This document shows positions 14,658 to 35,335 of a DNA stretch of 52,080 nucleotides, piece after piece. The first letter of the stretch is position 1, and every line of letters starts with the position of its first letter. The stretch comes from an uncultured bacterium (GTDB lineage: Bacteria > Chloroflexota > UBA5177 > JANWHV01). Where the stretch lies: contig CAVSOU010000020.1 in NCBI GenBank assembly GCA_963729625.1, positions 1 to 52,080 on the forward strand, written 5' to 3'. The notes under the pieces were generated by a model. It was not told where the DNA came from. It made no database searches and was given only the letters and a program-made list of their open reading frames with translations. A program made the position numbers and the translations under genes.

Positions 14658-15265
14658 TAAGGGCTCGTTAAGCAATTAGTTCCTGATTTGAGTCTGGCGC
14701 GGCCGGGCACGTGGCAACCCCTGATCGGGACGAGAGTGTGTAGTTCCACTTGGTGTAGATCTCATGCTTGGTCAACTGCAAGGCGTCCATGTCGGCATCG
14801 GGGACGGAGCGGCCAGTCGGGTAGTCGCCCTCCAGGCGCACTGCCTGCACCGCCAGGCCCGTGCTGGTCGTGGTGCCGCGGATGTAGGCGAGCATGGTCT
14901 CGAAGGTACGCAGGGGCTTGCCTGCCCAGTTGAGACTGATCGGACCGAACAGGCGATGCTCCACCGGGTTCCACTTCGAGCAGCCAGTGGGGTAGTGGCA
15001 GACGGTCACCGTGAGCCCCAGCCCGTCGCACAGCTGCTCCTGCAGTTGCTGCTTCCACAGGCGGTTGCGACAATCATTGCTGCCACCGCCATCGGCCAGG
15101 ATCAAGAGTTCCCGGGCGCCGGGGAAGCGGGCCCGGCCGTCGGTCTGCCACCACTGGGCGATGGCCGTGACTGCGAACGCCGCCGTGTCTCCCGAGGAAC
15201 CGACGTAGACCGTGCCCCGGTTGTGCTGCAGGTCGTAGACGCCATAGGCGGCGTCGGGCGGTTGA
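14658..15265 (-). mobile_element. ISAzo13-family transposase, 3' remnant with probable right end
   Basis: YGVYDL..N.G.V.VG.S.DTAAFAV, LLILADGGGSN, HYPTGCSKWNPVEHRLF, WNYT; N-terminal half absent. Confidence 0.88.
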
Positions 15266-15266
15266 C

Positions 15267-18200
15267 TCACACCGACACCTCTGCAGTGCCGACCGTCGAT
15301 CCCAATAGGGTAGTGCCCAGGGGACCGTAGTACACCCAAGGCGCCCACGCTGCGGCGCCGACCACAGATGGCGTGAGTGTCGCGCGACACAAATCCCGAG
15401 TTGCGATTTCCCACGCGGTGAGGAAGGGCAAAAGGCGGTCCTTGTTGCTTTCGTCTCCCTCGGTGGCCTGACGGGAGTCTCTCAGCGCTTGCTTCCACGC
15501 CTCGAGTGCACGCGGGACTGCCGCCCAGCTCATCTGGCTTAGCTCAAGCTGTGTCCGGCGCATGGATTCTGCCACGGGCATATCAAACGCGTCAGCCAGT
15601 TTCCCATACAGGGTGTCCAGCAGGAGTGCCGCCAGTAGGTCGTCGACGAGTGCCGTGGTGGCGATGACGGCAGTCGCGCCCGCCAACAGACAGGCCTGTA
15701 CCAAGCCGTGCAACCCTTGTGCTTCGTCGTTCAAGCGTCCATCTGCCGCCGACCCCTGCCGCGTGGTAGACGTGCCTAGCGCTGCGCCGGCGGTGCGGCA
15801 GCCATGGAGAATGACGACCGTGCCAGGCAAGACGCAGCGCAGGACATCTGTCACGGTCAGCGGGCCATCAGCCAGCATGATGCCAGTACGGTGCGGCTCT
15901 TCGTCGTTCTGGACGCTGTGACCAGCGATCACTAGCAGCCGGACCTGCGCGGCCAGTTCCTGCACCTGATCCAGGCTTGCCTCCCTATCTATACGAACAT
16001 GCGCCACAGCGCCGGGACACACGCCGCGCAATCGTTGGCTCCCAACTAGGGCCGCGACCTCGGTGAGCGGGGCAGGATCTGCCCATAGGTGCCAGGAGGG
16101 CAGTTCAGGCCATGAGTCTCCCACAGTGACCACGTTGCCATACGCCACAAACGCGAGCGCATTGGGGTGCATCGGGCTGGCTAGTGCTTCCGTTACATGG
16201 CTGGTGTCGCTTACGGGCGCTGTCGACGACTGGGTGTTGTAGGAACTTGGAGTAGCGCAGCGCTGCCCCAGCCTGGGCAGGAGGGCGCCCTGCGGTAGAT
16301 GGGCAATCGTCAGATCCGTGCCGCCGACCCCGCTTGCATACGCTGCCGCTGCAACCGGCGCCTCCAGCAGGGATGTATCTAGACTTAGATACATCCTGCG
16401 GATGCCCTGGCGCCGTATTTGCTTCGTCCAGGCTGGGCCGGCCAACGATTCCCAAAGACCGTTCAGGGCTACGGGAATGCCCTCGTCTCGCGCGGGATGC
16501 CGGACAGATCTCGCGTGAGTCGGGCTCTTTCGCCCCTCTGTTACCCAGGGCAGGGACAGACGCGCATCCTCGACCAACCGCGTAGCATGCCTGGCGGCGG
16601 CTAGGAGGTGATCCTTGTTGGGTGGCAGACTAGGTGTGCGCCCTGCCCATCGTGGAAGGCCGCGCCACCACCGGCCGAGCCTTGACACGACCGTCTCCGT
16701 CTTTAGCGTCGTATCGGCAGTACACGCAAAACGGCGTGGCGGCGCCAGCAGTCCCCGCGGCCCCAGCAGAAAGGCCACCAGACCCAGTGGCGTCTCCACT
16801 ACCTCTAGCAGCACTGCCTTGTCCCCGGCCAGGGCCTCGCACACGTCCGCCATTGCGACACCCGCTGGCAACGCCGCGCCCTGCAAAGGGCACGACTGAC
16901 GGCCATCGGCAGCGAGCTGACGAACCGCCCGATCGAGGAAGCTCCCAGCTAGAGAGAGTACGGCAATCTCTCGTGCGCCAACAGCTGCCCAAAGCTGTGC
17001 CTGCGCATCCTCGGTGGCATACAGCGCGCGGAGTGCCTCCTTGCGTTCTACGTCCTCTTCCCCCAGATCCTGTAGTGCTGCCCACTGGGCTACCCACCGA
17101 CCGCGGAGTTGTGCAAGCTGGTCTGTTTCCTCTCGTGTCAGGTAGCGCAGTAGATCAATCTGCTGCACGCCGACGAAAAGGTCAGCAAACGTGGCGCCTT
17201 TGGCTACCTGGCCTAGCACGTAGGCGCGTTCAGCATCCGCTTCGGCGTAGCGCCAACAGGCGCGCAGGGCATAACGTTGGGCCTTAGCGCTCAGGGAAGG
17301 GGGCGCAAGGCCCCACCGATATTGCCATCGGCGCTGCAGCACCGCCGCTTGGCGCCGGTAGAAGAGATAATCCCGCCAATTCAGCACCTCGGGCCGCTCG
17401 CATACGCTAGCCGCTGCGAGCGCGGCCTCCGCAGCACGTTGCTCGTGCTCGAGAATGCTATGGTCCTCGATTGACTGACGATAGTGATAGAGGGCATCTG
17501 GCCATTGTTCCAGTTCGGCGTATGCTGCGCCCATGTCGAAGTGACAGATGGCTAGGCGCTCACTCATCTCATCCTGCTCAAGGATGTCGCACGCTACACT
17601 AAAATGCTCAAGTGCGGCGAGGGGGTCTCCATTCGTGACGAAGATAGTCCCAGCAGCGAGGGCGCAGCGAGCGACGTTCCCCCGATCCCCTGTACTCTCA
17701 GCCTCCTGCCGAAGCTCTGTGATCAGCTGCAGCGCCCGGCCGCGCTGCCCTTGCCGAGCCAACGCCGTGGCCATGAGAACCTTGCAGTCGTAGACGAGCG
17801 AGGGCCGATGTTGCGCTAGGATTGGAAGCGCTTCCACACAGTACCGAAGCGCATGGTCAAACTGCTTCAGCCCGATCATCGCTCTTGCCAAATGATAGGT
17901 GCAACTCACCATGTCGTCCGGTTGCTGCAACCGCTCCAGTTCGTCATGGGCGCGGGCAAGGCGTCGTACCGCCTCCTCAAGGAGGCCCATATCTATAAGG
18001 CACATGCCGGCGATGCGCTCGCAGTCCGCCGCTTGGTACTCGAGCCCGAGCTCCTTCCACAGTTCACGCGCTCGTTTCGCCTCTCGGGATGCCTCTCGAT
18101 ACCGGTTCAAGTACCAGAGGCTACGGGCGAGATTGTCGCGCGTTCTTGCTTCGTTCTCCTTTGGTCCGTGAATCGCAAAAAAGGTGGCTGCCTGCATACA

Positions 18201-19196
18201 GTGCTGAGCCGCCGTCTCGAACTGTCCGAGGTTGCATAGAATTCCTCCACTAAACATGTAGCAATCATGTATTTTAGGCGCGTTCTGCTCTGGGTCGAAC
18301 AGCGAGAGGGCTCGCCTACAGCAACGCAAGGCCAGTCGTGGTCGGTCCAGGCTTGCGAGCGTCTCAGCGGCTCGATAGAGGGACTCCGCAGCGTCGTTCC
18401 ATGCCTGGCGGCGTTGGAATAGTCTGGCAGCCCAGTAAAGACGGAGGATTCCCAGACGATGAGCATGCACCGGATATCCCGGGATAGTCAGCAGGTGACC
18501 TATCTCGTAGTCGCATTGTGCCGCAGCAAGCGGTTGTTGGGAGCTGAGATAGATGCTATGTGCCCGCATACAACGAAAGACGGCCTGCTGCCAGAGGTGC
18601 TGTCTGATTAGTAGAGCCCCTGCCAGTTGATGACAGTACGCAGCCTCGAGAAGCAACTGCTGATCCGCGAACAACCGGCGCGCCGTGTCGAGTCGGCGAA
18701 GAGCGGCCGGGAGATTCTCGAGGTTGAAAAGCAGGCCGGCGGCATGCCGATGGCACCAGGCGACACTCGCCAATTCATCCTGGCCACAACGATGGAGCAT
18801 GTGGCGAGCGCGATTGTACAGGCCAAGCCCGGATCTGTGGTTCCCCTGGAGTTTTTGCGCCTGTGCCATCTGGAAGGTGCAGTGCGCTACGTCGCGTTGG
18901 CACACGACGCCTCGACGCCCAAGGTCTCTGAAGGCGTTGCGCGCTAGTTCGAGCCGCGCATAGGCCTCCTCCGGTTGATTGCAGTTGAGGAGTGCTCGGC
19001 CAGCATAGAAATCCACCGTGGGGCTGCTCCCCCCATCCAAAGCGAGCGCAGCCTTTGCCGCATCGAGCAACCCAAGCGCACGTGTAGGCTCTTCCTCCAA
19101 CAGGCCGGAGGCTTCGCGGCAGAGTTCTGCCAGCCCGTTCTCCTTCCGGAGGAGGGCCGCCAGTGCCCCTAAGTCAACTTCGTGGGACGTAGCCAT
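15267..19196 (-). CDS. TPR-CHAT caspase-like protease, paralog 2
   Basis: long TPR-like array, then CHAT motifs LLVIAGHS, VVILHGCRT, GLVQACLLAGATAVIA, WAPWVYYG; ATG 1 nt after the upstream stop. Confidence 0.9.
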   Translation of the reverse strand: MATSHEVDLGALAALLRKENGLAELCREASGLLEEEPTRALGLLDAAKAALALDGGSSPTVDFYAGRALLNCNQPEEAYARLELARNAFRDLGRRGVVCQRDVAHCTFQMAQAQKLQGNHRSGLGLYNRARHMLHRCGQDELASVAWCHRHAAGLLFNLENLPAALRRLDTARRLFADQQLLLEAAYCHQLAGALLIRQHLWQQAVFRCMRAHSIYLSSQQPLAAAQCDYEIGHLLTIPGYPVHAHRLGILRLYWAARLFQRRQAWNDAAESLYRAAETLASLDRPRLALRCCRRALSLFDPEQNAPKIHDCYMFSGGILCNLGQFETAAQHCMQAATFFAIHGPKENEARTRDNLARSLWYLNRYREASREAKRARELWKELGLEYQAADCERIAGMCLIDMGLLEEAVRRLARAHDELERLQQPDDMVSCTYHLARAMIGLKQFDHALRYCVEALPILAQHRPSLVYDCKVLMATALARQGQRGRALQLITELRQEAESTGDRGNVARCALAAGTIFVTNGDPLAALEHFSVACDILEQDEMSERLAICHFDMGAAYAELEQWPDALYHYRQSIEDHSILEHEQRAAEAALAAASVCERPEVLNWRDYLFYRRQAAVLQRRWQYRWGLAPPSLSAKAQRYALRACWRYAEADAERAYVLGQVAKGATFADLFVGVQQIDLLRYLTREETDQLAQLRGRWVAQWAALQDLGEEDVERKEALRALYATEDAQAQLWAAVGAREIAVLSLAGSFLDRAVRQLAADGRQSCPLQGAALPAGVAMADVCEALAGDKAVLLEVVETPLGLVAFLLGPRGLLAPPRRFACTADTTLKTETVVSRLGRWWRGLPRWAGRTPSLPPNKDHLLAAARHATRLVEDARLSLPWVTEGRKSPTHARSVRHPARDEGIPVALNGLWESLAGPAWTKQIRRQGIRRMYLSLDTSLLEAPVAAAAYASGVGGTDLTIAHLPQGALLPRLGQRCATPSSYNTQSSTAPVSDTSHVTEALASPMHPNALAFVAYGNVVTVGDSWPELPSWHLWADPAPLTEVAALVGSQRLRGVCPGAVAHVRIDREASLDQVQELAAQVRLLVIAGHSVQNDEEPHRTGIMLADGPLTVTDVLRCVLPGTVVILHGCRTAGAALGTSTTRQGSAADGRLNDEAQGLHGLVQACLLAGATAVIATTALVDDLLAALLLDTLYGKLADAFDMPVAESMRRTQLELSQMSWAAVPRALEAWKQALRDSRQATEGDESNKDRLLPFLTAWEIATRDLCRATLTPSVVGAAAWAPWVYYGPLGTTLLGSTVGTAEVSV

Positions 19197-19197
19197 C

Positions 19198-22100
19198 TCA
19201 GCCTGACACTTTCTCCGGGGCGACATTCGACTGTGAGAGAGTCACGTCGAAAGGGCCGTAGTAGATCCAGGCCGACGACGCTGTCATGCCCGGCACGGCC
19301 GACGCCAGTGCCGCATGGTCGAAGCTACGTATCTTCGCCTCATTCGATTCCAGAGCCTTCACCAGCGGATCCTCCCCACCCTCCTTCTCGATCACGCGAC
19401 CGCTGCTTTTCACGATCTGCTTCCATCCAGCCAAGGTGTCTAGGACTGCCAACCAGCTCATATGGCTGACGTGAAGCTGGGTCGAGCGCAGGGACAGCGC
19501 TACCGGCTGATCGCCTGCTTCCGCCAATGTTCCACACAGCCTGTCCAACAGGAGCGCCGAGTGCAGGTCATCGACCCGTGCCGTGCTGGCGATTACGGCG
19601 GTAGCTCCGGCCAGTAGGCACGCCTGGACCAGTCCCTGCAGCCCGGGTGCTGCGACAGACAGGCTCCGGTCTGTCCGGGCCACTTGCCGCGGAGCGGCCG
19701 TACCCGGTGCCGCGAAAGAGGTCCGGCAGCCATGCAGAATGACGATGGTACCGGGTAGGACGCAGCGCAGCATGTCGCTTGCGGTGAGCGGACCATCTGC
19801 CAGCAGTATGTTGGTGCGAAGCGGCTGTTGATCATCCGGGTGACCATGCCCGGCGATTACGAGCAGTCGGGACGAGGAGGCCAGGCACTGCACCTGGTCC
19901 ACAAGGGCTTCCTTCCCCACACGCGTCCGCACCCCGCCGGCGGGCAGCGCCTGTCCCAAGCGCCGGCTTCCGGCAATGGCCGCCACCTCCGTGAGCGGCA
20001 CCGCGGGTTCCCACAGCTGCCAGGATTCCAGATCGGCTGACGATGTTGAGTCGGCAAAGACATTGCCATTCGCCACGAAGGCGAGCACATCGGCACGCGA
20101 GGTACCGGCCATCGATTCGGTTGCCTGATTCCCATCGTGGTTTGCAGACGCCGGCGCGCGTGTGCCGGAGCCCGCCGCTTCGGAGCGACGAGCCAGCAGC
20201 CTGGGTAAGAGCGCGCCCTGCGGAAGATGAGCGATAACGAGATCTGCGCCACCGATTCCGCTTGCATAGGCCGCGGCTGCAATCGGTGCCTGGAGCAGTC
20301 CAGCGTCCATGCTGAGGTAGAGCTTGCGAATGCCGCGGCGCCGCAACAAACTCGTCCAGGCGCGACCGGCCAGGCACTCCCACAGCGCGGCCAGCGGTGC
20401 ATCGAGGTCGTCGCCTCGGCCGGGTTGCTGAGCAGCGCCTGCACACGCGGCCTCCTCGCTTCTCACGGCTACCCAGGGCAAGTTGAGACGAGCATCCTCT
20501 ACCAGCTTCGCAGCAGCCACCGCGGCAGCGAGGAGTTGATCGAGATCACCCGTTGGCTGTGTGCGTCGCGCCATCCGTCCAAGCTTGCCCCACAGCCGGC
20601 CGCGTGCGGTAGCATGTTGCTCACCCGCCCAGTCTATGTCGCCGGCATGGGCGAAGCGGCGCGGCGGCGCCAACAGCCCATGCGGCCCCACCAGGAAGAC
20701 GACCATCCCTAGTGGCGTCTTGACCAATTCCAGCAGTGCCTCGTCGTCGGCTAGCGCTTCGGATACGCTCGTGACGGCAAAGCTCGCCAGCAGCCCTGCG
20801 GTTCGCGGAGTATGCGCCCTGCCACCGGCGGCCGCGAGCCGGCGTATCGTATCGTCGAGGAAGCTCCCGGCCAGAGAACACAGCGAAAGCTCACGTGCGC
20901 CGGCCGCCCGCCAGATCCGGTCCTGCACGACCTCAGTGCCATCCATAGCGGCGAGGAGGGTCGTGCGGTCAGGGTCATCAGTGGCTAGCTCCTGCAGTGC
21001 AGTCCACTGCGCTACCCATTGATTGCGCAACGTCTGAAGCTGACCTCTCTCGTCGGCGGTCAGGTAGCGCCGCAGATCGAGATGCTGAGCACCTCCGAAG
21101 AGGTCGGCCAAGGCGGCGGCCTTGGCTACCTGGCCCAACGCGTATGCGCGCTCAGGACCCGGATCGGCCGAGCGCCAGCACGCACGCAGGGCGCCAAGCT
21201 GAGTGCTGGTACCCAGGGGCGGAGGGGCGAGTCCCCAGCGATGTTGCCAGCGTCGATGCAGGATCCCGGCCTGCTGCCTGTAGTAGAGCGCGCGTCGTCG
21301 ATCACTCACGCTGGGATGCTCCGCCACGCGTGTTGCGATTTCTGCGGCCTCCGCAGCCTCATTCTCGCGTTCAAGGCTGATCCATCCCTCCATGGCTTGA
21401 TGCAAATGGCTCAGGGCGAGTGGCCAGTCTGGCAATTCGCTGTACGCCCTTCCCATCGTTTGGTGACAGGAGGGCAGACTCCCGAGGTCTGCGGTTCGCT
21501 CATAGAACTGAAATGCCGCACGAAGATGCTCAAGGGCTGCGCGCGGATCTCCCCCAGCAAGCAGGATTACTCCGGCGGCTTGGTTACAGGCAGCGATATG
21601 CTTGAGATCGCCTGTTTGCTCGACCTGTCGTCGAAGTTCCGCCAACAACTGCAGCGCGCGACCGCGCTGGCCCCTGTTAGCGAGCGTCATTGCGAATTCG
21701 AATTTGCACTCGTGAACACGCTGGGGCATATGTTCGGCCAGGACGGGAAGCGCGGTCTGATAACAATGGAGTGCCGAATCCAGATGCCCAAGGGCCGCTA
21801 ACGCCGTCCCCAGACGGTAGGCGCATTCCGCCGCACAGCCAAATTGCTCCAACTGCTCCAGTTGGCGCTTGGCCTCGGCCAGGCGCGGTACAGCCTCCTG
21901 CGGACGGCCCATTTCGATGAGGCAGACACTGGCGACGCGCGCACAATCGGCCGCTTGGTGTTCGTCCTCCAACTCATGCCACAACTCGCGCGCCCGTTCG
22001 GCTTGCGGCAGGGCGGCTCTATGCCGCGTGAGCTGTGCCAGGCTGACGGCAAGGTCCCTGCGTGTCCGCGCCTCGCTCACTTTCGGACCATGGAGTTGGA

Positions 22101-23211
22101 AGAAGGTACACGCACGGTCCAAGTGTGGCATGGCCATCTCGTACTGCCTCAATCCGAACAGGACCTCGCCGATATTTCTGTGGCATTCGTGGGCTTTCGG
22201 CAGGTCGTTCTCTCGCTCGAACAGTGCGAGCGCCCGCCTGAAACAGCGTATCGCCAGACGCGGGCGCTTTAGAGTCAACAGCGCCTCGGCAGCTGCATAG
22301 GCGGTCTCCGCCGCACTGTGCCATGCCTGACAACCTTGGAAGACCCTGACGGCTCGATAGAGATAGGCCATGCCTGTGCGAACATAGCCTGGACGGCCGC
22401 TGCGTGTCAGGGTATCTCCGATCTCAGCGTCGCATTGGGCGGCAAGTTGCAGTTCCAAAGACCTGACATAGGTGGCACGAGCACGCTCATACCGATAGAC
22501 AGCCTGCGAGTAGTGGTGCTGTGCGCCCAACACCTGACCCGCCAGCCGTTGGCAGGCGGCAACGTCGCGCTCTTGTTGCAGACGCGCGAATATGCTTTGT
22601 GCCGCGTCAAAGCGATGCAGTGCCGCAGGAAGGTCATCAAGCTGGATCAGCAGAACGCCAGTGTGATGATGGCACCATGCAACGTTGCTCACCTCATTCT
22701 CGCAGTGCGCAAGCATGTGGCGTGCACGATTGTAGAGGCCAAGAGCAGCTCGGTAATGTCGCTGGCATGCCTGCGCTCGTGCCATATGGAAGGTGCAGAA
22801 AGCCACGCCGCGTCTGGCCTCCAGACTACGGGATGACGGAATTGCCTTGTACCCGAGACGACCTTCGGCAAGCAGCTCATATGCGTCGGCCGGGCGATCA
22901 CAGGCGAGAAGCGCAAGTCCTTCATCGAGATCCACTTCGGGGCATCCACACCCATCCAGCGCCAGCGCCGCCCGCGCCGCGTCTAGCAGCTCAAGCGCGC
23001 TTTCAGGCTCTTTTTCCAGCATGCTGTGAGCGTTGTTCAGCAGATCCGCCAACACGGTTTTGTCTCGGAGGAGCGCCGCCAGTGCCTCTAGGTCAACGTC
23101 ACTGGATATGTCCTGCGGCTCAGGGTTGGCGGGGCAGTCGGGCGCGAGTTGCCCTGACACGCCGTCATCGCCTCGACCAGCGAGCGTTCCGCCCATAATC
23201 CCCATCTCCAT
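19198..23211 (-). CDS. TPR-CHAT caspase-like protease, paralog 1 (start could be GTG 23274)
   Basis: same architecture; LLVIAGHG, IVILHGCRT, GLVQACLLAGATAVIAS, AWIYYG. Confidence 0.9.
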   Translation of the reverse strand: MEMGIMGGTLAGRGDDGVSGQLAPDCPANPEPQDISSDVDLEALAALLRDKTVLADLLNNAHSMLEKEPESALELLDAARAALALDGCGCPEVDLDEGLALLACDRPADAYELLAEGRLGYKAIPSSRSLEARRGVAFCTFHMARAQACQRHYRAALGLYNRARHMLAHCENEVSNVAWCHHHTGVLLIQLDDLPAALHRFDAAQSIFARLQQERDVAACQRLAGQVLGAQHHYSQAVYRYERARATYVRSLELQLAAQCDAEIGDTLTRSGRPGYVRTGMAYLYRAVRVFQGCQAWHSAAETAYAAAEALLTLKRPRLAIRCFRRALALFERENDLPKAHECHRNIGEVLFGLRQYEMAMPHLDRACTFFQLHGPKVSEARTRRDLAVSLAQLTRHRAALPQAERARELWHELEDEHQAADCARVASVCLIEMGRPQEAVPRLAEAKRQLEQLEQFGCAAECAYRLGTALAALGHLDSALHCYQTALPVLAEHMPQRVHECKFEFAMTLANRGQRGRALQLLAELRRQVEQTGDLKHIAACNQAAGVILLAGGDPRAALEHLRAAFQFYERTADLGSLPSCHQTMGRAYSELPDWPLALSHLHQAMEGWISLERENEAAEAAEIATRVAEHPSVSDRRRALYYRQQAGILHRRWQHRWGLAPPPLGTSTQLGALRACWRSADPGPERAYALGQVAKAAALADLFGGAQHLDLRRYLTADERGQLQTLRNQWVAQWTALQELATDDPDRTTLLAAMDGTEVVQDRIWRAAGARELSLCSLAGSFLDDTIRRLAAAGGRAHTPRTAGLLASFAVTSVSEALADDEALLELVKTPLGMVVFLVGPHGLLAPPRRFAHAGDIDWAGEQHATARGRLWGKLGRMARRTQPTGDLDQLLAAAVAAAKLVEDARLNLPWVAVRSEEAACAGAAQQPGRGDDLDAPLAALWECLAGRAWTSLLRRRGIRKLYLSMDAGLLQAPIAAAAYASGIGGADLVIAHLPQGALLPRLLARRSEAAGSGTRAPASANHDGNQATESMAGTSRADVLAFVANGNVFADSTSSADLESWQLWEPAVPLTEVAAIAGSRRLGQALPAGGVRTRVGKEALVDQVQCLASSSRLLVIAGHGHPDDQQPLRTNILLADGPLTASDMLRCVLPGTIVILHGCRTSFAAPGTAAPRQVARTDRSLSVAAPGLQGLVQACLLAGATAVIASTARVDDLHSALLLDRLCGTLAEAGDQPVALSLRSTQLHVSHMSWLAVLDTLAGWKQIVKSSGRVIEKEGGEDPLVKALESNEAKIRSFDHAALASAVPGMTASSAWIYYGPFDVTLSQSNVAPEKVSG

Positions 23212-23290
23212 GGTGTTGTACTCCAGTCGCTGCTTGCAGCCGTCAACCGCCCGGAGTCCCACGGCCCTTGTCACGGCAGCATGACCTGCC

Positions 23291-24955
23291 TCAGCCGCCC
23301 TCTTCGATCCGGTAGGCCAGATTGAGCTTCAGCAGCTGCCCTCGGTTCAGGCCATCGTCGATGGACCACACGCCGCTTTCCTCGCGCGTGTTGAGCGGTC
23401 TCTCTTCCTGTGCGATACGGAGCGTTGCAGTCAGCTCCCAGGGGCGAGTGAAGCCTTGCGCGGAACCCAAGTCGATGAGTCTGGCTTCGACGTGATAGCG
23501 CTTGTTGGCGTCGGGCGTGGCGGTCACGCGCAGCGTCACGCCGTGAGCCCGATCAGGCACCTGCACCTCCTTGACCGTGGGCTCCTCGCCCAATGCTGTA
23601 CCAATGGCCAGGCTTGGCTGCTGGTGCGCCTGCTTGAGAGCATCGCCGAAGTGCACCTGCACCCATTCCCCCGACCGCTGGAGCGCTGCCAGCAACCCGC
23701 CCTTCGCGGTCGCTGCTGTCGATGGGCCGAGCGTGGGCTTGGGAGTAGGCTCGACTGCGCCAAACCTGCCCCAAACTCGGCTGTCCCGCGTCAACCCCTC
23801 TATGCCGCCGGCGCGAAGCACCGATCGGGCTTCAGCTGCGTCAACAACCGGCTGCCCCCTCACCAGTGTCTGGACTTGTGGGTGAAGGCTGAAAACGGCC
23901 TCAGGACCGCTCTTCGTGATTTCCGGCAACGACTGAAGCCTGAACAGGTCCCCAACGTTCGCGTCAACCGGCACCAGAAGCCCTATCCTAGCAAGAAGAT
24001 CTGCCCCATGACCGGCTTCGAGGCGTTCATTGGGCACGCGCCAGATAGTGGAAGGAGGTCGAAGCTGAACCAGCGCAGTGAGCAGTTGACGTTCTTCGGT
24101 GCGCAGGCGGTCAAAGACCCATTTGTACAGCAAGTCCAGCACACCACGGCCTCGAGATGCGATAGTATCGCCATCTCCGATTATCCCCCAGTGGCCTTCC
24201 TCATCCTGCCCTGCCACGCCGAGATGCGCGAGGAGATCCTGCATGCTGGCAGCCACCGTAGCAGCGTTTCCCTCTGGCGCAGCGCCGACGGCAAGCCTGA
24301 TCGCCATCGGTAGACCGGAGGTAGCGTGACAAACATGCGCGAGCCACCACCCGAGCTCGGACGTGAATTCAAGATCAGCCGTGCGTCGGCGCAGCAAACC
24401 AAGCGCACACTGGATTGAGGCGTTGGTGGCCAGACAGTAGATCATGGGGAACGGGTCTAGGTTGGGTACCTCCAATGGCGCGATTTCGCGGGCGGGAATA
24501 CCGAGCGTCTTTGGCGGTTCCCTGCTTGTGACAATGACGACCAGTGACGGATAGCGTTCGACAAGCCCCTTGCACAGACTCCCGTAATCAAATCTCGGGA
24601 GATCACAGCCATCCGCAACAAGGAGCACGGGCTCCTGCCGCTGGAGCAGCTCACGTGCGGCTTGCCATTGCAGGTTGGTTGCCGGTGCAGTTTGCGGTGC
24701 GAGCACGATACGCTCGAATTGCTGCATCTGGGAGATGTCGAGAAGTGCGCAGGGTATGCGCCAAATCCGGAAAGAGAAGCGGCGAGCTAGCTCGCCAGTC
24801 ACCTGCCGAGCAACATGACTCTTGCCCACGCCACGGTTCCCCCACAGCCAGAGCAGGCGGCTGAGCGGGGGCGAGTCCGAACCCGGTTGCCCTGCGAATG
24901 CATAGACGGGCCGGGTATTCTTTCCTGCCGTTGCGTCAGCGTCTCTAATCGCCAT
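23291..24955 (-). CDS. STAND / NB-ARC-like ATPase with non-TPR C-terminal domain
   Basis: Walker A GNRGVGKS, Walker B LLVADGCD, sensor VTSRE, GLPMAIRL, winged-helix-like region ending LHPQV. Confidence 0.85.
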   Translation of the reverse strand: MAIRDADATAGKNTRPVYAFAGQPGSDSPPLSRLLWLWGNRGVGKSHVARQVTGELARRFSFRIWRIPCALLDISQMQQFERIVLAPQTAPATNLQWQAARELLQRQEPVLLVADGCDLPRFDYGSLCKGLVERYPSLVVIVTSREPPKTLGIPAREIAPLEVPNLDPFPMIYCLATNASIQCALGLLRRRTADLEFTSELGWWLAHVCHATSGLPMAIRLAVGAAPEGNAATVAASMQDLLAHLGVAGQDEEGHWGIIGDGDTIASRGRGVLDLLYKWVFDRLRTEERQLLTALVQLRPPSTIWRVPNERLEAGHGADLLARIGLLVPVDANVGDLFRLQSLPEITKSGPEAVFSLHPQVQTLVRGQPVVDAAEARSVLRAGGIEGLTRDSRVWGRFGAVEPTPKPTLGPSTAATAKGGLLAALQRSGEWVQVHFGDALKQAHQQPSLAIGTALGEEPTVKEVQVPDRAHGVTLRVTATPDANKRYHVEARLIDLGSAQGFTRPWELTATLRIAQEERPLNTREESGVWSIDDGLNRGQLLKLNLAYRIEEGG

Positions 24956-25988
24956 CGGTCAACTCCGCCAACCTCGCCACGGAAGGACCTGCCTTTTGCA
25001 ACAGCTTCTTAAGGATGCGCTCTGCCTGTTCCCCGCCAGCTGATGACCTATACTCTTTCTCGGCCCAACCGAACCAGGTGACAACCGGAGTGACGGCTTC
25101 GACAACGTCATGGGGTACGTAGAGCTCTCCCATCACCTGCTTGTAGGTTCGAGCAAGAGGGGGGAAGACATCGAAGTTCCCCGTATTCAGTTGTGACTCG
25201 ACGTACTGATCATATTCTTCCTTCGCTCTCTCGAGTTGCTGGTTGATGCCGTAGTACGTTATGAGACACTGAAGAGCAGCCGTATCCTCGGGATCCGCAT
25301 GTATCACTCCTAGGAGATAGGATTCCAATTGTCCGTCTGCCCCGCGTTGTCCGCCTGGATCTTGCGCCGCCGTCGCCAGAAGAAGCTTCCGCCACTCCTT
25401 CTTGAGTAGCGTCTGACGAGCTGCAATCGTCCCGACATAACTACCGTCGGGAAGATACTCCTGTTGCCAACCCAGCGCGAGCGCGGCATAGCAAGCAGTC
25501 GGATCGCTTCCGGCCTTGTTCAGTTGTCTGACATACTTCCACACGTCCAGCCATTCTCCCTCCTGGAAACTGTCATCCATAGAGGGTTCGTGCACCTCGG
25601 TTGCTCTCTTGGCGCAGCCTGGCACACAGAACATGATGATGTCCTGGCAGTAGTGGACGTACCGATAGCCACCGTCGCCAACCAGATGCCTATTGGCCAA
25701 CTCATACAACGCCTCACGCTTCGCATGAGGGAAGTCGACTGAAGAGTTCGGTGCATGGCGTTGAGCTGAGGGCGGTCTCTTTGTTACCTCACGTATCGAC
25801 TGGATTACTTCCTGCCTGTCGACACGCGGATCGAGCCGACAGGGGTCGAGCGTGAGTCGGCTAACGGCGACCATGAGCAATTCTTTAAGTGCCCAAGCCC
25901 TGCCAAAGTCTACCCGTCGTGGTCCTTCGGCATCGTCAAGCGTTACCACGAACTTGCCAAGCGTTCTCACAGTCAAGCCAGGATGCAT
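24945..25988 (-). CDS. divergent SARP/AfsR-type regulator (OmpR-like HTH + BTAD)
   Basis: LTVRTLGKFVV start, WLDV, AALAL...EYLPD, DPEDTAALQCLITYY...A...Y; GAGGGGAG RBS. Confidence 0.7.
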   Translation of the reverse strand: MHPGLTVRTLGKFVVTLDDAEGPRRVDFGRAWALKELLMVAVSRLTLDPCRLDPRVDRQEVIQSIREVTKRPPSAQRHAPNSSVDFPHAKREALYELANRHLVGDGGYRYVHYCQDIIMFCVPGCAKRATEVHEPSMDDSFQEGEWLDVWKYVRQLNKAGSDPTACYAALALGWQQEYLPDGSYVGTIAARQTLLKKEWRKLLLATAAQDPGGQRGADGQLESYLLGVIHADPEDTAALQCLITYYGINQQLERAKEEYDQYVESQLNTGNFDVFPPLARTYKQVMGELYVPHDVVEAVTPVVTWFGWAEKEYRSSAGGEQAERILKKLLQKAGPSVARLAELTDGD

Positions 25989-26217
25989 GCTTTCTCAACT
26001 CCCCTCGGTTCCGTAGCCGAGACCCTTTCTGCGGCAGCCTGAAAAGCTTTAGGCCCACTCGCTAGGAGCATACGGCCGGCAATACGGCTTGTCGAAGGGC
26101 CTGGCAACCCGGCCCTATGCCCTTCTGTTTCCGTACCTGGGGCGTGCTTGCCTGCGCCTGGAGACGCTGGCCTCCGGCTGTCGCCCAGGCGATCAGCTCC
26201 TAGTATGCCGAACTTCC

Positions 26218-26259
26218 CGTCAGTACTGACGCTGGGCGGTGTCAGTGTATATACTGACG
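26218..26259. promoter_or_regulatory. tandem GTCAGT/ACTGAC inverted repeats in the divergent intergenic region
   Basis: perfect palindrome CGTCAGTACTGACG (26218-26231) and GTCAGT-N6-ACTGAC (26241-26258). Confidence 0.55.
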
Positions 26260-26607
26260 CCCCCTTCTCTATGACCCTGACGGACTACCGCCTAGAGTAG
26301 GGAACAGCTCGAGTGACCAAACGCCCCGGGAATGAAGCGAATCGCCAGAGCATCACGCCAGCGCCTCGGGACGCCCCTAGACGCCAATCGACACGAAAGG
26401 AGGGACCTGTCTAAACGTTGACGCCGTAGCGCCCCAGTCCCGCTCGCTCCAGCTCATCCGCCCCGAATCCCCCCAAAACGCGCCAGCCGCGGCGGGCAGC
26501 CCCGTCAACTTCCCTCCGACGGACTGTCTTTCGCCCCAACCCACCCGTCACGGCCGGCGCTCTCCCCTCGGCGGCCCCCGCCGAGCCAGTCACCAAGGAG
26601 TGTCGTC

Positions 26608-26856
26608 ATGCCTCGATTTTGCTCACCCACCCTCGCCCCAGCCCCAGTCCTTATTCCGCGCTGCGGTTGTGGCAAGGCTGCCACGCACGGGTGCCGACAG
26701 TGCCGCCGGGCCGGCTGCCCCGAGTGCCTGCAGGGCGGCATGTGCAGCCTGTGCCGCGTCCTCCAGGCCCAGGAGGCCGCTCGCGTCTGGGCGGCCGTCG
26801 TGCAGCGTGAGGCCTGCCAGGCCGTCTGTCTCCGTCCCCGTTCCCAGCACTGGTAA
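26608..26856 (+). CDS. small Cys-rich (B-box-like) zinc-finger protein
   Basis: CGC..CRQC..CPEC..CSLC; AAGGAG RBS. Confidence 0.65.
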   Translation: MPRFCSPTLAPAPVLIPRCGCGKAATHGCRQCRRAGCPECLQGGMCSLCRVLQAQEAARVWAAVVQREACQAVCLRPRSQHW

Positions 26857-26948
26857 CACCAGCCAGCCCTCGGTCCCGCTCATCTTCCCACGCTCATCGG
26901 GATGCGCCTTCCCCCCTGCCGGAGGGTCCGCCCAGAAAGGTCACCGCC

Positions 26949-27821
26949 ATGTACAACGTGAAGGTCCTGGTTCTCTTGACGCTTCTCGCCTCCAACCCGC
27001 TCTGGGGCGCGCTCGTGGCCTATGCGGTGCGAGGCGCGGCCCGCGTGCTCCGCTCCGGTCGCAGCGCCGCCTTTCTCGCCGCCGGCTTGACCGCCGTTGT
27101 GACGCTCGCCGGCTGCGGCGGGGCCAGCAGGCACACGCAGGCCATCCCGCTCCGGCCCGGCGTCGCCCTTTACGCGTGTATCGCCGAGCAGTTCAATACG
27201 CGCTACGTCGGCGGAGATCTGCACGTCGCCCTGGTCAGGGCGGCCCTGGCCCTCCCCGCCGTGGGCACCGGCGCGAGCGACGCCGACGCGGAGCGTCTCG
27301 ACGGCGGCGCGGCCCCAGGCAAGATCATCGCTCGCGGCCACATCGACGCCGTACCCGCCCCCGCCCTCACGCCGGTGCCCAACCGCTACACCCGAGCGGA
27401 GTACCGGGCCGCCGTGGCCACCGCCAACGCCTCGGCCGTGGCGGCCAGTGCCGCCGCCCTGCAGCATGCTCGTGTCCAGGCCCACCAGTTCGCGACCGCC
27501 CTCTTCGCCAAGCAGGTCGACCGCTCGCTCCAGGGCAGCGACCTCGGCGCGTGCCTGGGTGGCGGGGCCGCCTTCTTCGCCTCCCACCCCGGCCAGACCC
27601 CGATCCTGGTGGTGTCCGGCCGTCTCGTGCCCGAGGGCCCGCAGACAGCCCTCACCGGCGTTGACCTGCGCAAGGCAGCCGTGCATCTCGTCTTCTACTG
27701 CGAGGAAACCGCGCAGTGTCCGGCCCGTCTGCAGGCCTTTCGTGCCACCCTGAGTCGCCTGGATGCCGGCTCCATCACCGTCTCGCCGCCCGAAGATCTC
27801 GCCCTGCTCACCCTGGTTTAG
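26949..27821 (+). CDS. membrane-anchored/lipoprotein with possible degenerate vWA-like fold
   Basis: hydrophobic N-terminus, LAGC lipobox-like motif, GSDLGACL...PILVVSG; GAAAGG RBS. Confidence 0.6.
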   Translation: MYNVKVLVLLTLLASNPLWGALVAYAVRGAARVLRSGRSAAFLAAGLTAVVTLAGCGGASRHTQAIPLRPGVALYACIAEQFNTRYVGGDLHVALVRAALALPAVGTGASDADAERLDGGAAPGKIIARGHIDAVPAPALTPVPNRYTRAEYRAAVATANASAVAASAAALQHARVQAHQFATALFAKQVDRSLQGSDLGACLGGGAAFFASHPGQTPILVVSGRLVPEGPQTALTGVDLRKAAVHLVFYCEETAQCPARLQAFRATLSRLDAGSITVSPPEDLALLTLV

Positions 27822-27839
27822 CGTTAAGGAGTTGTCCGC

Positions 27840-29057
27840 ATGTTCAGCTGGCCCCTCTTTCTCGACGTCACCCTCAAGGCCTTGGCCGCCGTCACGCTGC
27901 TCACCTTGCTCGCTCTCCCGCTGCGCCTGGCTCGTGGTGAGCGCCTGATCCTCGCCCTGTTCGCCATGCCGCTGGCTGTCCTCTCCGCTCCCTTCGCCGC
28001 CCTCGGTGCCGCGATCCTCCTGCTGGCAGCCGTGCTGCGTCACCTGACGGCCGGCCTGCTCGCCCTCGCCCCCCCGGAGCGCCGAGCCGAGGCCGGGGTC
28101 TTGAGCTGGTACCTGTTGCTGCCCTTGCTTGAGATCGCGCTGGCGGCCCTCCTGGTCGCCTCCGGGGTCGGGTTCGACTCTATTAAGTTCACGGGCTTGG
28201 TGGGCGGTGACGCCGGCACCGTCGACGCCAGCACGTTGGGCACCGCGCTCGCGCTCAGCTGGATGCTGGGCGGTACGCTCTGCGCTCTTATCCTGGCCGA
28301 CAGCTTCGGCCACAGCCCGCTGGGCAAGGACGCCGACGGCCGGGGCATCAGCATGAGCATGTGGTTCGGCCACGTCTCCGGCAGGCTTCTCCTCGCCGTG
28401 CGCGGGCTGGCTCTCATCGCCCTGGCCCTCTACCTCCTGAGCGCGTTCTTCTTCGCCCTCTGGAGCGCCGACCCCAACAACGATCAGGCTGCCCAGAGCT
28501 TCATGCTCTGCTACGTCATCGCCGTGGTGCTCATCACCATCCTGGCCGGCGCCACGCTGCCGCACACCGCCAAGGCCCTGGTGATCGTCGCCTTTGCTCT
28601 CCTCTGGCTCCTGTGCCACGCGCTGCAGATTCTGGTCTGGATTCCCATCGCCCTCATCGAGGCAGTCCGCGACTTCGCGCTCGTGGCCCTCGCGGTCCTC
28701 GCCGACCTGGCCTTGCTGCTCTTCGTCCGCAGTCGCCGCCAGCCGCCTACCGCCACGCCGCCCGAGGCCGAGCCGACCGTCACCTCCGCCTCCCCCAAAC
28801 CCGTCGCCTTCCGCCAGGCCGAGGAGACGCCACCCGCCACACCGGCGGCCGAACAGCCTGCCACCGCTGCCCTGCCCAGTCAGACTCCGACGCCGGCCGC
28901 CCCGAGCACTCCCGCAGGACCCGCCGCGGGCGACACCGAGGACTACGGCCTCCCTGCTGCCGTCGGTCCGCGCGTTCGGGTGGTTCCCACGCTCGCGACC
29001 GCCACGAACGGCTCTACCCCGCGGCACACCACCCCGCCCGACGCCAACGGCTGCTGA
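27840..29057 (+). CDS. multi-pass membrane protein with Pro/Ala/Thr-rich C-terminal tail
   Basis: many hydrophobic segments; TAAGGAG RBS. Confidence 0.75.
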   Translation: MFSWPLFLDVTLKALAAVTLLTLLALPLRLARGERLILALFAMPLAVLSAPFAALGAAILLLAAVLRHLTAGLLALAPPERRAEAGVLSWYLLLPLLEIALAALLVASGVGFDSIKFTGLVGGDAGTVDASTLGTALALSWMLGGTLCALILADSFGHSPLGKDADGRGISMSMWFGHVSGRLLLAVRGLALIALALYLLSAFFFALWSADPNNDQAAQSFMLCYVIAVVLITILAGATLPHTAKALVIVAFALLWLLCHALQILVWIPIALIEAVRDFALVALAVLADLALLLFVRSRRQPPTATPPEAEPTVTSASPKPVAFRQAEETPPATPAAEQPATAALPSQTPTPAAPSTPAGPAAGDTEDYGLPAAVGPRVRVVPTLATATNGSTPRHTTPPDANGC

Positions 29058-29274
29058 CAGCCACGCTCCAGCCTGTAGCATTGGCCGTGGGCTGGAGCCT
29101 GGCCCGCCTCGCATAACCACTCTCTTCAGCCCTGCTTACTCCGGAAGATAGTCCGCGATGAATCAACCGATCTCTACCGCTCACATGACTGGGGCTCTTC
29201 CGCATAAAGCGTGACCGACTCTTTGTTAGGCAGGTCGTCACGAGCGCTCCCGTGCGGGCCTCAGTGCTTCCAGC

Positions 29275-30276
29275 CTACGGTTGCTCCTCCCTCTGGCGGT
29301 TGACTTCGAGCACCATCCGCCGCAGCGTGTCGTCACCTCGCTGGACCAGATCCAGCAACGCCGCTGTGATCTCTGTGTCGTGGTAGCGAAGCCGTCCGAG
29401 CGTCTGGACGGTCCAGATCTGACCGCCGGCACTGCTGGTGCGCAACTGCGCCAAGAGGTATGCTCTGCACTCGGACAACTGCTCGTTCTCGAAGGCCAAT
29501 GTCTCGCCACACAGGGTGCGCAGTCGGCGACGATCGGCAGCCTCATCCGGCATGTGATAGCCCCATGCCTCTCTGCACGTTGCGTAGATATCGTCCACAA
29601 GCGCAGCCCACCGCGCTCCGAGGTGTCTTTGCGCGAGCGCAACCGCCTCAGCCTTGCTCGCAGCAGCGTCGCCCGACCGCAGGGCGACGAGGACGGTCGC
29701 AGCCCAGCACACGACCGCGACAAAGAGCCGCATGGTCGAGGTGCCGTGAGGCGGGCGGGGCTGGAAGTCGTAGCCGTAGAACTCGCCCGCCGGGTCGGGA
29801 TAGCACAGTGGATAGCTGAGCGGACCGCGTTCACGCCGGATCAGCGACAGGTGGAAGAGAGACTGATCGATTGCCTCCTGGATGAAAAGTCCGAGCGGTA
29901 CGTGCGGGAGGCGCGCCTTAATGTCGGTCCCGGCGATCAAGCGTCCAGCATTGGCAATGCGCATGTCGCCAGTACACAAGAGTTCATCCGCGCCGAGCGC
30001 GAAGAGATCGAGCCGAACCGTCCCTATGGCGTTGCAGCTAGCGGCAAGGCGCTCGCAGTCGTCCACGTCCCTCTGCGTCAGGTGGCCGCGCAAGACGAGG
30101 CACACGTCTAAGTCGCTGAGGTCGTCGTAGCGATCCCTGCCCCACACTGCCTTACCCTCGGCGACACTGCCGATTACATAGCTCGCCTCGACGCGTCCCG
30201 GGAACGCGAGGTCGGAGAGGTCGACGACACCACCAAGTACGCGATCGACGGACTCAACTCCCGTTGGAAGAAACAT
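29275..30276 (-). CDS. pol-beta-superfamily nucleotidyltransferase with helical C-terminal domain
   Basis: YVIGSVAEG...SDLDVCLV motif and later acidic LDLF strand. Confidence 0.75.
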   Translation of the reverse strand: MFLPTGVESVDRVLGGVVDLSDLAFPGRVEASYVIGSVAEGKAVWGRDRYDDLSDLDVCLVLRGHLTQRDVDDCERLAASCNAIGTVRLDLFALGADELLCTGDMRIANAGRLIAGTDIKARLPHVPLGLFIQEAIDQSLFHLSLIRRERGPLSYPLCYPDPAGEFYGYDFQPRPPHGTSTMRLFVAVVCWAATVLVALRSGDAAASKAEAVALAQRHLGARWAALVDDIYATCREAWGYHMPDEAADRRRLRTLCGETLAFENEQLSECRAYLLAQLRTSSAGGQIWTVQTLGRLRYHDTEITAALLDLVQRGDDTLRRMVLEVNRQREEQP

Positions 30277-30304
30277 GATCAGGCCCTTGGTTGTCTCGTA
30301 GTGC

Positions 30305-30951
30305 TCAGGCCGCATGCAGGACACGCTGCCGGAGTAGATCCAGCTTCATCCTACCGTACGCACTGCGCTTGAGCACCCTGTGAATATGCCCTTCGACCGG
30401 CCCGTTCGACCATGGGAGCGTCAGCGCTGCGCGCACCGCAGCGCCGTCCTGCTCGAGGCTCGCTGCGAAGTTGCGGAGTTCAGGTGCGGGCCCTACGGCG
30501 CACTCTGCGATCCAGGCCTCAAAGGCATCGACCTGCCGTTGCCGCACCATGGTGGCGAATTGGGCAACCATACCCTGCAGCCAGGCCAGCCCTACGTGCT
30601 GCCGTAGCTGCTCCCACAACGCGCGATCGTCTGCGTCCAAGCCGCAAGCAGCAGCAACGCGGTCACGACCACCCGTACTACAGGCATCGGCAGCTCACTT
30701 CACCCTGCTCGCCCGCTCCTGCGGACAGGTGGCGCGGGGTACAAGCAGGCGTCACGCTCAAGCATACTCCATCCAGCGCGCCTATCCCGCGCTGTCGCCA
30801 GCGGGCTCACGGGGCGCTTGGAGCAGCTTGGCTGCAACAAAGTCGATCTGACGCCTCAACACATCGCGCCACGATCGGCGGCGGGTAAGGTTCCTACCGG
30901 TGCCAAGGTCGTGGTCGGGACGACAAGGATTTCACGAGAAGTCGGTGGAAC
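30305..30951 (-). mobile_element. ISL3-family remnant (transposase C-terminus, internally deleted)
   Basis: AALTLPWSNGPVEGHIHR, LKRSAYGR..DLLRQRVL; possible terminal sequence near 30931-30951. Confidence 0.8.
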
Positions 30952-31426: not shown

Positions 31427-32437
31427 CTACCTGCTTGCTTCTAGAAGACGGAGCTCGAGCTGCTCCAAGGTGAGTCCATACCGGCGAGCCCATGCCAGGG
31501 CTGTAAGAATGGTTGTGGCAGCTCCAGGTGGTGCCAGGAGTGCCGTGAACTCGGCATCCTGCTCGTCTGCTTCACCCTCGTGCACCATGTCATTCTGCGG
31601 TGTGTCACGAAGGGGGATCCCCGCTTCGGCATGATCCTCTTGCGCCCATTTACTCTGGTGTGGACGGGAACCGTCCAAGAATTCCATGCCTTTCCGTGTC
31701 GTCTGCGATCCCTTCTCATGACGCGCGCTGCGCAGTCTCATTTGCTGGATATCTTCTCGTCGAAGGGGGCCTTGCTCTGCCTGATTAATGAGCTTGGCGC
31801 GGTCTCGCTTGTGCGTTATGCGTGCCACGGCGGTCGCAGCGGTAGGCGTGAGAACACCCTTGTCGAGTGCTTGGGCAACGTCGTCGTACCTCAACCACGA
31901 GAATCGTTCCTCGACATAGGTGTGACTCTTATGTATGCGGTCGGCGAGGGTGCGGCGGTCCTTAATACCCTCGACGTCCATGAATTCCTTCATCGCCTGC
32001 GCCTCTTCCAGCGGGCTCAGGTCCTCTCGAAGGAGATTCTCCGTCAGTTGCAGGATGCGCCGATGTGCCCCCTCGCTATCGCGTACAAGCACGGAGATAT
32101 GACTGAGACCGGCCATCTGGGCAGCGGTATAGCGGCGGCCGCCGGCAACGACGACGTACCGATATCGGCCATCCGCCAGGGTTCCTTCCCGCCGTACCAC
32201 CAATGGCTGAAGGATGCCATGCTCGCGTATGGAGTCCGCCAGTTCCTGCAGACTGGCTTGGTCGAAGTGCTTCCGGGGCTGTTCGGGGTCGGGGGAGATC
32301 ATTTCAATGGGCAGCAACAGGGCGCCGTCAAGCATCCGTTCACTGTCAAGGTGGCGTCCCGCATCTGGTGTGATCAGCGCAGGTCGCTGCCCGCGCCTCA
32401 TGACGCGGTCGAATTCTTTGGGAGACTTAGTGGCCAT
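31427..32437 (-). CDS. parB: ParB/RepB/Spo0J partition protein
   Basis: PDPEQPRKHFD, LADSIREHGILQPLVVR, VAGGRRYTAA, ENLLREDLSPLEEA, HTH. Confidence 0.95.
   Translation of the reverse strand: MATKSPKEFDRVMRRGQRPALITPDAGRHLDSERMLDGALLLPIEMISPDPEQPRKHFDQASLQELADSIREHGILQPLVVRREGTLADGRYRYVVVAGGRRYTAAQMAGLSHISVLVRDSEGAHRRILQLTENLLREDLSPLEEAQAMKEFMDVEGIKDRRTLADRIHKSHTYVEERFSWLRYDDVAQALDKGVLTPTAATAVARITHKRDRAKLINQAEQGPLRREDIQQMRLRSARHEKGSQTTRKGMEFLDGSRPHQSKWAQEDHAEAGIPLRDTPQNDMVHEGEADEQDAEFTALLAPPGAATTILTALAWARRYGLTLEQLELRLLEASR
31648..31680. repeat. parS-like palindrome, copy 1 (inside parB)
   Basis: TGGACGG-GAA-CCGTCCA within a 33-bp sequence repeated at 33340-33372 with one mismatch. Confidence 0.7.
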
Positions 32438-33210
32438 GGTTGTTGGAGCGCTCCTTCAGCACACGTTCTGCGAGGAGGCGATAGGCTGCAGCAGGTGAAC
32501 TCTGTGGGTCATACGTGACGACGGCCATACCTTTATTCGTTGCACGCTTCACAGCCACCGATTGCGGTACTGGTTCGGTTACTAGCTCGCCATAGGTAGC
32601 GCGCAAGGCACGCACCCCCTCGGTATCGTGATTGTTGTTGGCCACGCGGCTGGGCACGATGGCGAATAGTCGCGCAGCCTGCAAGGCAGCCAGTTCGTCA
32701 CGGAGTAATAGCGTATCCTCAAGGGCGTCGAAGTCTTGCTGGGTCAATTCCGTGGGCAAGATCGCAATATTCGTGGAGAGCAGGGCGGCATTGAGCGCAA
32801 AGCCCAACGCAGGTGGCGTATCGAGAACGATGTAGGCATACCCCACCACTGAGTTCAGAAGACTGCGAAGGCGCAGATAGTAGGTAGGGTTCTGCGCCAA
32901 CGCGAGGGCTGTAGTCTCGATGCTCACATCCCCCGGCACGATGTCAATGTTCTGCTTCACGGAGCGGATGAGGTCAGTAATGCCGAGCTGCGGTTTGAGC
33001 ATGCGATCGCCAATGCCGCCAAGACCGGCGGATCTCCCCTGCGAGAAGTATGCGTGTGAGTGATGCCTGTGGATCCAGGTCAACAAGAAGCACCCGAGCA
33101 CCTTGTTCAGCGAGGGCACCGGCTAGGTTTAGGGCTGTTGTCGTTTTCCCCACGCCGCCTTTCCTGCCGGCAATAGCGATCAGCAACGGGGCCACGATCT
33201 CGTCAGGCAC
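32427..33210 (-). CDS. parA: ParA/Soj ATPase, frameshift near 33040
   Basis: [20 protein letters not shown] in one frame; [18 protein letters not shown] in the next. Confidence 0.93.
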
Positions 33211-35327: not shown

Positions 35328-35335
35328 GCGCAGGC

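Follow-up and report, generated by a model that had tools for sequence, protein, structure and literature searches.

We analyzed a stretch of 52,080 nucleotides from an uncultured bacterium of the Chloroflexota (assembly GCA_963729625.1, contig CAVSOU010000020.1, positions 1 to 52,080 of the forward strand), which we call the window; it starts at base 1 of the contig. Four co-directional genes lie in it in the order P0002, P0001, P0003 and P0004 (Table 1). They encode a SARP-like protein, an ATPase with a C-terminal tail, and two TPR-CHAT proteases, and we refer to them together as the cassette. The end of P0002 and the start of P0001 overlap by 11 nt, the end of P0003 and the start of P0004 by 29 nt, and the gap between P0001 and P0003 is 17 to 80 nt, depending on which start of P0003 is chosen. 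A GGAG stands upstream of the ATG of P0001. Our main subject is the tail of P0001, which has no relative in the collections searched and which we tentatively read as a docking module.

Table 1. Features of the cassette and its surroundings (pLDDT, predicted local distance difference test; aa, amino acids; positions are those of the window)
Feature	Position	Strand	Remarks
P0001, putative ATPase with tail	23291..24955	-	554 aa
NOD (nucleotide-binding and oligomerization) module of P0001	23873..24868	-	Residues 30-361; motif positions and alignment
Stretch after the winged-helix domain	23765..23872	-	P0001 residues 362-397; one helix and one strand in model 1, pLDDT 30-54; structure uncertain
Pro/Thr/Ala-rich linker	23702..23764	-	P0001 residues 398-418 (21 residues)
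Orphan tail, predicted all-beta	23294..23701	-	P0001 residues 419-554 (136 aa)
P0002, putative divergent SARP-like module (winged helix plus BTAD-like)	24945..25988	-	347 aa; hhalign, Atlas features
P0003, TPR-CHAT protease	19198..23274	-	1358 aa from GTG at 23274; Pfam TPR_12 79.8 bits, CHAT 69.5 bits (cut-off 24)
P0004, second TPR-CHAT protease	15267..19226	-	1319 aa; Pfam CHAT 79.8 bits (cut-off 24)
Promoter-like site upstream of P0002	26067..26095	-	TCGACA, 17 nt, TATGCT
Transposase remnant, DDE_Tnp_ISAZ013	14668..15498	-	Profile positions 134-307 of 308; Pfam E 7e-68; directly after P0004
Tn3 transposase	7-2250		
Fic	4135-5358		
HTH_17	10515-11093		
MPTase-PolyVal (ArdC-type metallopeptidase domain)	12405-13034		
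ParB and ParA-like	31427-33119		
GH32/ABC sugar-uptake/LacI cluster	33867-40037		Beside mobile-element genes
IS integrase	40360-42096		

The ATPase Module

The N-terminal two thirds of P0001 is, judged by its motifs, a STAND/NB-ARC-like (NLR-like) ATPase. We aligned it with 14 paralogous or related STAND modules; one row (L009) comes from an unpublished genome (G018), and the reading is independent of that row. The Walker A motif GNRGVGKS (residues 39-46) and the Walker B motif LLVADG (residues 111-116) are both intact and fall in the columns where the relatives carry GxGGxGKT and LLxLDNCEH. Farther along the protein, VTSRE, GLPMAIRLAV and LHPQV share columns with three motifs of the 14 relatives, named as in the NB-ARC literature: sensor-1 (TSR), the GLPL-type motif of the helical domain and MHD, the last motif of the winged-helix domain. 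LHPQV (residues 357-361) occupies the MHD position, i.e., it has a His at the MHD place. The role of MHD, and the F/Y-HD latch of AfsR, are described in the available portion of 10.64898/2026.09.02.748808.

The Pfam matches of P0001 are both below cut-off (AAA_16, 23.5 bits against 32.6; NACHT, 21.0 bits against 26.7) and stop at residue 145; the NB-ARC model gives no match. The strongest match of P0001 to a paralogue in the same genome has E 2.3e-15; all the paralogue matches fall inside query residues 21-256, and the closest of these paralogues are SARP-NOD-TPR fusions. After the aligned LHPQV position a TPR arm is present in the 14 STAND modules and absent from P0001, where Pfam finds no repeat family. 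An earlier description of this DNA, made from its letters and translated frames and called here the sequence-only reading, had noticed that a repeat array is missing after LHPQV, and these comparisons bear it out. At the other end of the protein only about 30 residues precede the P-loop. Since P0001 has no N-terminal domain, the tail is its only extra domain and, the NOD itself aside, the only part through which it could make contacts.

One soil-metagenome DNA run shares a small fraction of the query words. Only two of its contigs, of 151 nt, align, at positions 24500-24888 in the ATPase gene with 97-98% identity, and none aligns to the tail; a close strain is probably present at low depth in that sample. 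No RNA run is among those listed as sharing query words.

The Linker and the Tail

The span 23291-23760 covers P0001 residues 400-554 and the stop codon. The sequence-only reading described here a Pro/Thr/Ala linker followed by a beta-rich domain of about 130 amino acids, and both can be located. Ala, Pro and Thr each make up 19% of the 21-residue linker, which includes the quoted string, VEPTPKPTLGPSTAATAK (residues 401-418; window 23755-23702). In the tail, QQPSLAIGTALGEE occupies residues 445-458, and the four segments that had been singled out as strand-like are all present: VTLRVTA (473-479), YHVEARL (487-493), LTATLRI (508-514) and GVWSIDD (528-534). In residues 428-554, the hydrophobic moment at period 2 exceeds that at period 3.6 in 66% of the 9-mers, compared with 47% in the ATPase module. 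The value of the tail is reached by 64 of 1000 shuffles, and taken alone it is modest support for beta character.

The reading frame of the tail looks coding. The frame stays open through the 193 codons that follow the winged-helix domain, and these have a coding-type pattern of guanine-plus-cytosine (GC) content; over residues 401-550 the values at the three codon positions (GC1 0.64-0.74, GC2 0.46-0.54, GC3 0.76-0.80) are of the same type as in the rest of the gene and in its neighbours. We considered a frameshifted TPR remnant hidden under the tail and rejected it: the other five frames carry stops, and tblastn finds no TPR remnant.

We searched for relatives of the tail in a variety of collections. 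There is no Pfam family at E ≤ 10, no match in NCBIfam, PHROGs or PADLOC, no usable match in Atlas, no solved PDB chain matched by sequence at E ≤ 10, and no match in the phage collection. A phmmer search with residues 400-554 against 1.84 billion representative proteins gave four matches, all of them repeat proteins aligned in three to nine short stretches, which we judged spurious. When residues 362-554 were compared with the six-frame translation of their own genome (E ≤ 10), only the gene itself was found. A six-frame comparison of the tail with 401 genomes of the phylum gave matches in 7 of the 400 other genomes (per-genome E 0.002-0.007, 17-18 bits); they consist of short pieces, four of them with in-frame stops, and we take them as chance.

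Searches with the full-length protein lead to the ATPase part. The homology search gave 2 hits out of 8000 scored, both confined to the ATPase part, and among the matches listed from 41 related genomes, all end by query residue 295. In the plasmid collection 51 records match, none covering 80% of the query; the rows listed end by residue 341, and those plasmid matches are to the ATPase module only. By all these comparisons, the tail is an orphan, probably lineage-specific domain with a single occurrence in one metagenome-assembled genome. The sequence-only reading had also proposed a resemblance of this domain to C-terminal domains of anti-sigma-like proteins encoded beside TPR-CHAT genes. That resemblance finds no support: PDB sequences, family libraries and the search for relatives yield no credible match.

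Predicted Fold of the Tail

Structure prediction of the P0001 C-terminus followed by a Foldseek search, which had been named beforehand as a test, gave a low-confidence model resembling TRAF-C, MATH and Siah domains. AlphaFold2 was run from the single sequence (there is no alignment for the tail). Model 1 (residues 362-554) has a pLDDT of 51.8 and a predicted template modeling score (pTM) of 0.46, with the linker below pLDDT 50; model 2 (residues 419-554) has a pLDDT of 57.8 and a pTM of 0.54, and shows nine strands between residues 430 and 550. Both models show the same compact fold of nine strands, and all four strand-like segments fall on strands in both.

The top Foldseek matches are the TRAF-like domain of USP7, the MATH domain of SPOP, Siah and TRAF4 (best E 1.8e-3 and 6.7e-3). 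In a second structural comparison, 35 of the first 36 rows are TRAF-C/MATH/Siah-type entries, with Z below 8, and this group gives the best structural neighbours for both models and with both aligners. No entry of a viral structure library matches the tail model at E ≤ 0.001, with some giant-virus TRAF/MATH proteins among the weak rows, and no known CHAT substrate is among the best 50 fold rows. The TRAF-C/MATH-like beta-sandwich is, in our view, a lead that concerns the model and can be reproduced, and the fold itself is not thereby demonstrated.

The Neighbouring Proteins

P0002 has no Pfam match (the BTAD and Trans_reg_C models miss it), and a search for its relatives returned only P0002 itself. 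By hhalign, however, it aligns with SARP modules taken from four SARP-NOD-TPR relatives (probability 92.9%, E 3.8e-7, 237 columns, residues 4-286), and its Atlas (language-model) features point to BTAD/SARP clusters with a score of 0.96. These findings suggest that P0002 is a hidden SARP-like regulator. In the same genome, Pfam BTAD is over the cut-off in 11 open reading frames (ORFs), four of which share their frame with a STAND paralogue of P0001. Because P0002 aligns to SARP modules and the nearest paralogues of P0001 are SARP-NOD-TPR fusions, the pair resembles an AfsR-type SARP-NOD-TPR protein divided in two, with the TPR arm lost or replaced. One SARP-NOD-TPR paralogue (L003, contig 8 of the same genome, 718-2466 and 2354-3652) is read in two overlapping frames, owing either to a frameshift or to a misassembly where the winged-helix domain meets the TPR arm.

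Evidence for the promoter-like site ahead of P0002 is weak; the consensus scan finds 4 sites in the region where 1.9 are expected. Overlapping this site, and weak as well, is a direct repeat of 7 nt (plus-strand sequence ATACGGC, 12-nt spacing, 26070-26088). The binding sites of SARPs are heptamer repeats spaced by roughly one helical turn, and two-copy repeat matches of 7 nt often occur by chance.

The TPR arrays that are absent from the ATPase are found on the adjacent proteases. P0003 has an alternative start, an ATG at 23211 with GGAG ahead of it, that gives a protein of 1337 amino acids, and the 1337 amino acid form is the one on record. The two proteases are alike throughout, with 669 identities over 1306 positions by BLASTP (51%; 37% to 58% by region). 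P0004 His1103 (in AGH) and Cys1143 (in HGC), presumably the catalytic dyad, as in caspase-fold enzymes, are invariant between the two. We see by eye no signal-peptide-like N-terminus in either protein. P0003 and P0004 are probably paralogous cytoplasmic caspase-like proteases. At their C-termini (15267-15530 and 19198-19460, minus strand) both have a conserved W-x-YYGP ... VS tail, and the last 86 residues form the least conserved region (37% identity). It is possible that this W-x-YYGP ... VS tail is a docking peptide.

Relatives of the cassette are as scarce as relatives of the tail. The TPR arrays of the proteases have no match at E ≤ 1e-3 to the frames of the STAND paralogues. Among 41 related genomes searched for TPR-CHAT at E ≤ 1e-10, only the window's own two copies appear, and a protein search with the CHAT half returned only the window's own paralogue. 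Scans for the operon pattern in genome and metagenome contigs gave 6 and 23 pattern matches, none of which was confirmed. No orthologue of P0001, of P0002 or of the TPR-CHAT pair was found in 40 related genomes, in the contig pattern scans or in the protein collections.

Genomic Surroundings

The transposase remnant directly after P0004 marks the end of the cassette. The contig as a whole is rich in mobile-element genes (see Table 1), which suggests that the cassette rides on mobile DNA. On the other side of the cassette, the region 26000-30000 has 68-69% GC and a strong negative GC and AT skew. It contains an ORF of 746 amino acids (26880-29120, minus strand), rich in Gly, Arg and Glu, that looks spurious, and two plus-strand ORFs (26949-27821 and 27840-29057) with no Pfam match. 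An ORF of 349 amino acids between the cassette and ParB (29275-30324, minus strand) has no Pfam or PHROG match; its N-terminus shows, by eye, a GS...DxD pattern reminiscent of nucleotidyltransferases.

Possible Roles of the Tail

What might this tail do? Our preferred answer, held with somewhat less than even confidence, is that it serves as a protein-docking module. We favor docking because the four genes form an operon, the tail is the sole extra domain of the ATPase, the TPR arrays sit on the proteases, and TRAF/MATH domains are peptide-docking modules; USP7, for example, uses its TRAF-like domain to bring substrates to a cysteine protease. It is tempting to picture that ATP-driven oligomerization of the ATPase module would cluster the tethered tails, and that the clustered tails would hold peptide segments of the TPR-CHAT pair. 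Alternatively, the linker or the tail's acidic C-terminus might be bound by the TPR arrays of the proteases. Either way, the proteases would be brought together and switched on. The TRAF-C/MATH-like lead, weak as it is, would suit such a docking role rather than the role of a substrate.

Several observations weigh against docking. Both tail models are of low confidence (pLDDT and pTM as given above), and the Pfam MATH model (PF00917) finds nothing in the tail and nothing genome-wide at E ≤ 10. We also considered the tail as a shared or homotypic adaptor and rejected this, as it has no sequence in common with P0002 or the TPR-CHAT proteins (by BLASTP, nothing better than E 0.34 against P0002, P0003 and P0004). 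As the collections searched contain no relative of either the tail or the operon, there is no conservation, co-occurrence or covariation to use. Finally, the C-terminal position in STAND proteins is normally that of a sensor and not of an effector adaptor, which makes a sensor a strong rival. The more specific proposal, that the tail is a genuine bacterial TRAF-C/MATH-type adaptor on an NLR-like ATPase, recruiting a pair of caspase-like proteases, strikes us as improbable.

As a sensor, the tail would replace the TPR arm, recognize a trigger (a protein or peptide of an invader, or a cellular cue) and hold the ATPase off until the trigger is bound, and the proteases would be recruited or controlled in some other way. 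The tail sits exactly where the 14 aligned relatives carry their TPR sensor arm, and the predicted peptide-binding sandwich would suit the recognition of a protein trigger. The contig, with its Tn3 and other transposases, ParA/ParB, Fic and the ArdC-type metallopeptidase, is a typical setting for a defence-type NLR, and a fast-diverging singleton domain could reflect diversifying pressure. However, no PADLOC model matches, and a sensor role leaves the ATPase and the proteases unlinked. Moreover, phage-sensing STAND sensors wrap their targets over extended interfaces, according to the available part of PMC13581612, and a sandwich of 125 residues is small for that. On balance we think a sensor unlikely, though to be taken seriously. 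The tail or the linker might instead be a substrate of the CHAT proteases and be released by cleavage, as the sequence-only reading also suggested. What is released would be either a signal or a toxic beta-rich effector that had been latent (compare Pepco, EACC1 and gasdermin). Both proteases keep their His and Cys. As far as the accessible text of PMC12642450 goes, small non-enzymatic proteins beside defence proteases are activated by site-specific cleavage, one of them being Pepco, a beta-barrel former of 117 amino acids that is trimmed at its C-terminus. The tail is of Pepco-like size, beta-rich and amphipathic, and lies behind an exposed linker. Yet Pepco and EACC1 are, in the same portion of that source, separate small genes and not tails of an ATPase, the best fold matches of the tail are soluble sandwiches and not pore formers, and no cleavage motif is known for P0003 or P0004. 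With Pepco and EACC1 compared by description only, we consider a substrate rather improbable.

Finally, the tail might have no specific function. In that case an AfsR-like gene would have been split on a mobile element and lost its TPR arm, the tail would be the young or decaying remainder, and the operon may itself be a degenerating singleton. Such a history would fit the transposase remnant flanking the cassette, the scarcity of relatives (none beyond the domain level for any of the four proteins in the collections searched), the low confidence of the models and a beta periodicity modestly above that of shuffles. It fits poorly with 193 open codons of coding-type GC, with four genes that are all intact and have their catalytic motifs, with the closure of the five other frames and the absence of a TPR remnant, and with two models that agree on one compact nine-strand fold; we hold it to be about as improbable as the substrate role.

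Implications

The pairing of an NLR-like ATPase with a caspase-like protease is a recognized theme of bacterial conflict systems, and the coupling of a separate protease to its ATPase has seldom been explained. In the cassette, what is usually one protein is divided among a regulator, a switch that bears a new tail, and two repeat-carrying proteases, which makes it a simple system in which to ask what holds such parts together. If the tail were an adaptor that recruits the proteases, it would be a prokaryotic counterpart of TRAF-style adaptor signaling. If its TRAF/MATH-like fold is real, it would fill a gap among the death-pathway domains that bacteria and animals have in common; the TRAF-C/MATH-type fold is given as absent from bacteria in the available portion of PMC8195603. 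The weight of the finding is limited by a single occurrence in one metagenome-assembled genome and by fold models of low confidence. A search of the open-access literature for the combination of SARP, STAND and CHAT, judged by listed titles and abstracts, and for MATH domains in bacterial STAND systems turned up no account of this arrangement.

Comparison with Known Systems

The closest architecture is that of the AfsR-type large SARP regulators (SARP-NOD-TPR, such as Streptomyces AfsR). Both have a SARP-like module ahead of an NB-ARC-type ATPase whose motifs come in the same order, with a His at the MHD position. Here, in contrast, SARP part and ATPase are encoded by two genes that overlap, the linker and beta tail replace the TPR arm, two TPR-CHAT genes follow, and P0002 is missed by Pfam BTAD.

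Bacterial STAND conflict systems with protease effectors (Kaur et al. 2020, PMC7159879; PMC12642450) also combine an NLR-like ATPase with proteases of the caspase superfamily and occur on mobile DNA. In the parts of these sources available to us, protease and sensor ATPase are fused, and the latent effector that the protease cuts is a separate protein (an MBL hydrolase, an alpha/beta hydrolase, Pepco or EACC1). In the cassette, by contrast, the proteases are separate, duplicated and TPR-bearing, no gene for such an effector is recognizable, and PADLOC gives no match. The type III-E Craspase, in which the TPR-CHAT protease Csx29 acts on the substrate Csx30, likewise has, as far as the accessible descriptions go, a TPR-CHAT protease beside small partner proteins and under the control of a separate sensor. 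The cassette differs from it in that genes for Cas7-11, other CRISPR-associated proteins or sigma factors are absent from the operon and the surrounding scanned ORFs. With the NCBIfam Csx29 model the scores here are 23 and 9.8 bits against a cut-off of 300, and the tail matches no solved chain by sequence (E ≤ 10).

The TRAF-C/MATH domain is an eight-stranded antiparallel beta-sandwich. The predicted nine-strand sandwich of the tail, about 125 residues long, matches the eukaryotic TRAF-C/MATH/Siah substrate-binding domains best, but at Z below 8, from low-confidence models and with no match at the sequence level. Taken together, the cassette is best filed as a variant of the STAND-plus-caspase-like theme, with an AfsR-like ancestry and an uncatalogued C-terminal domain.

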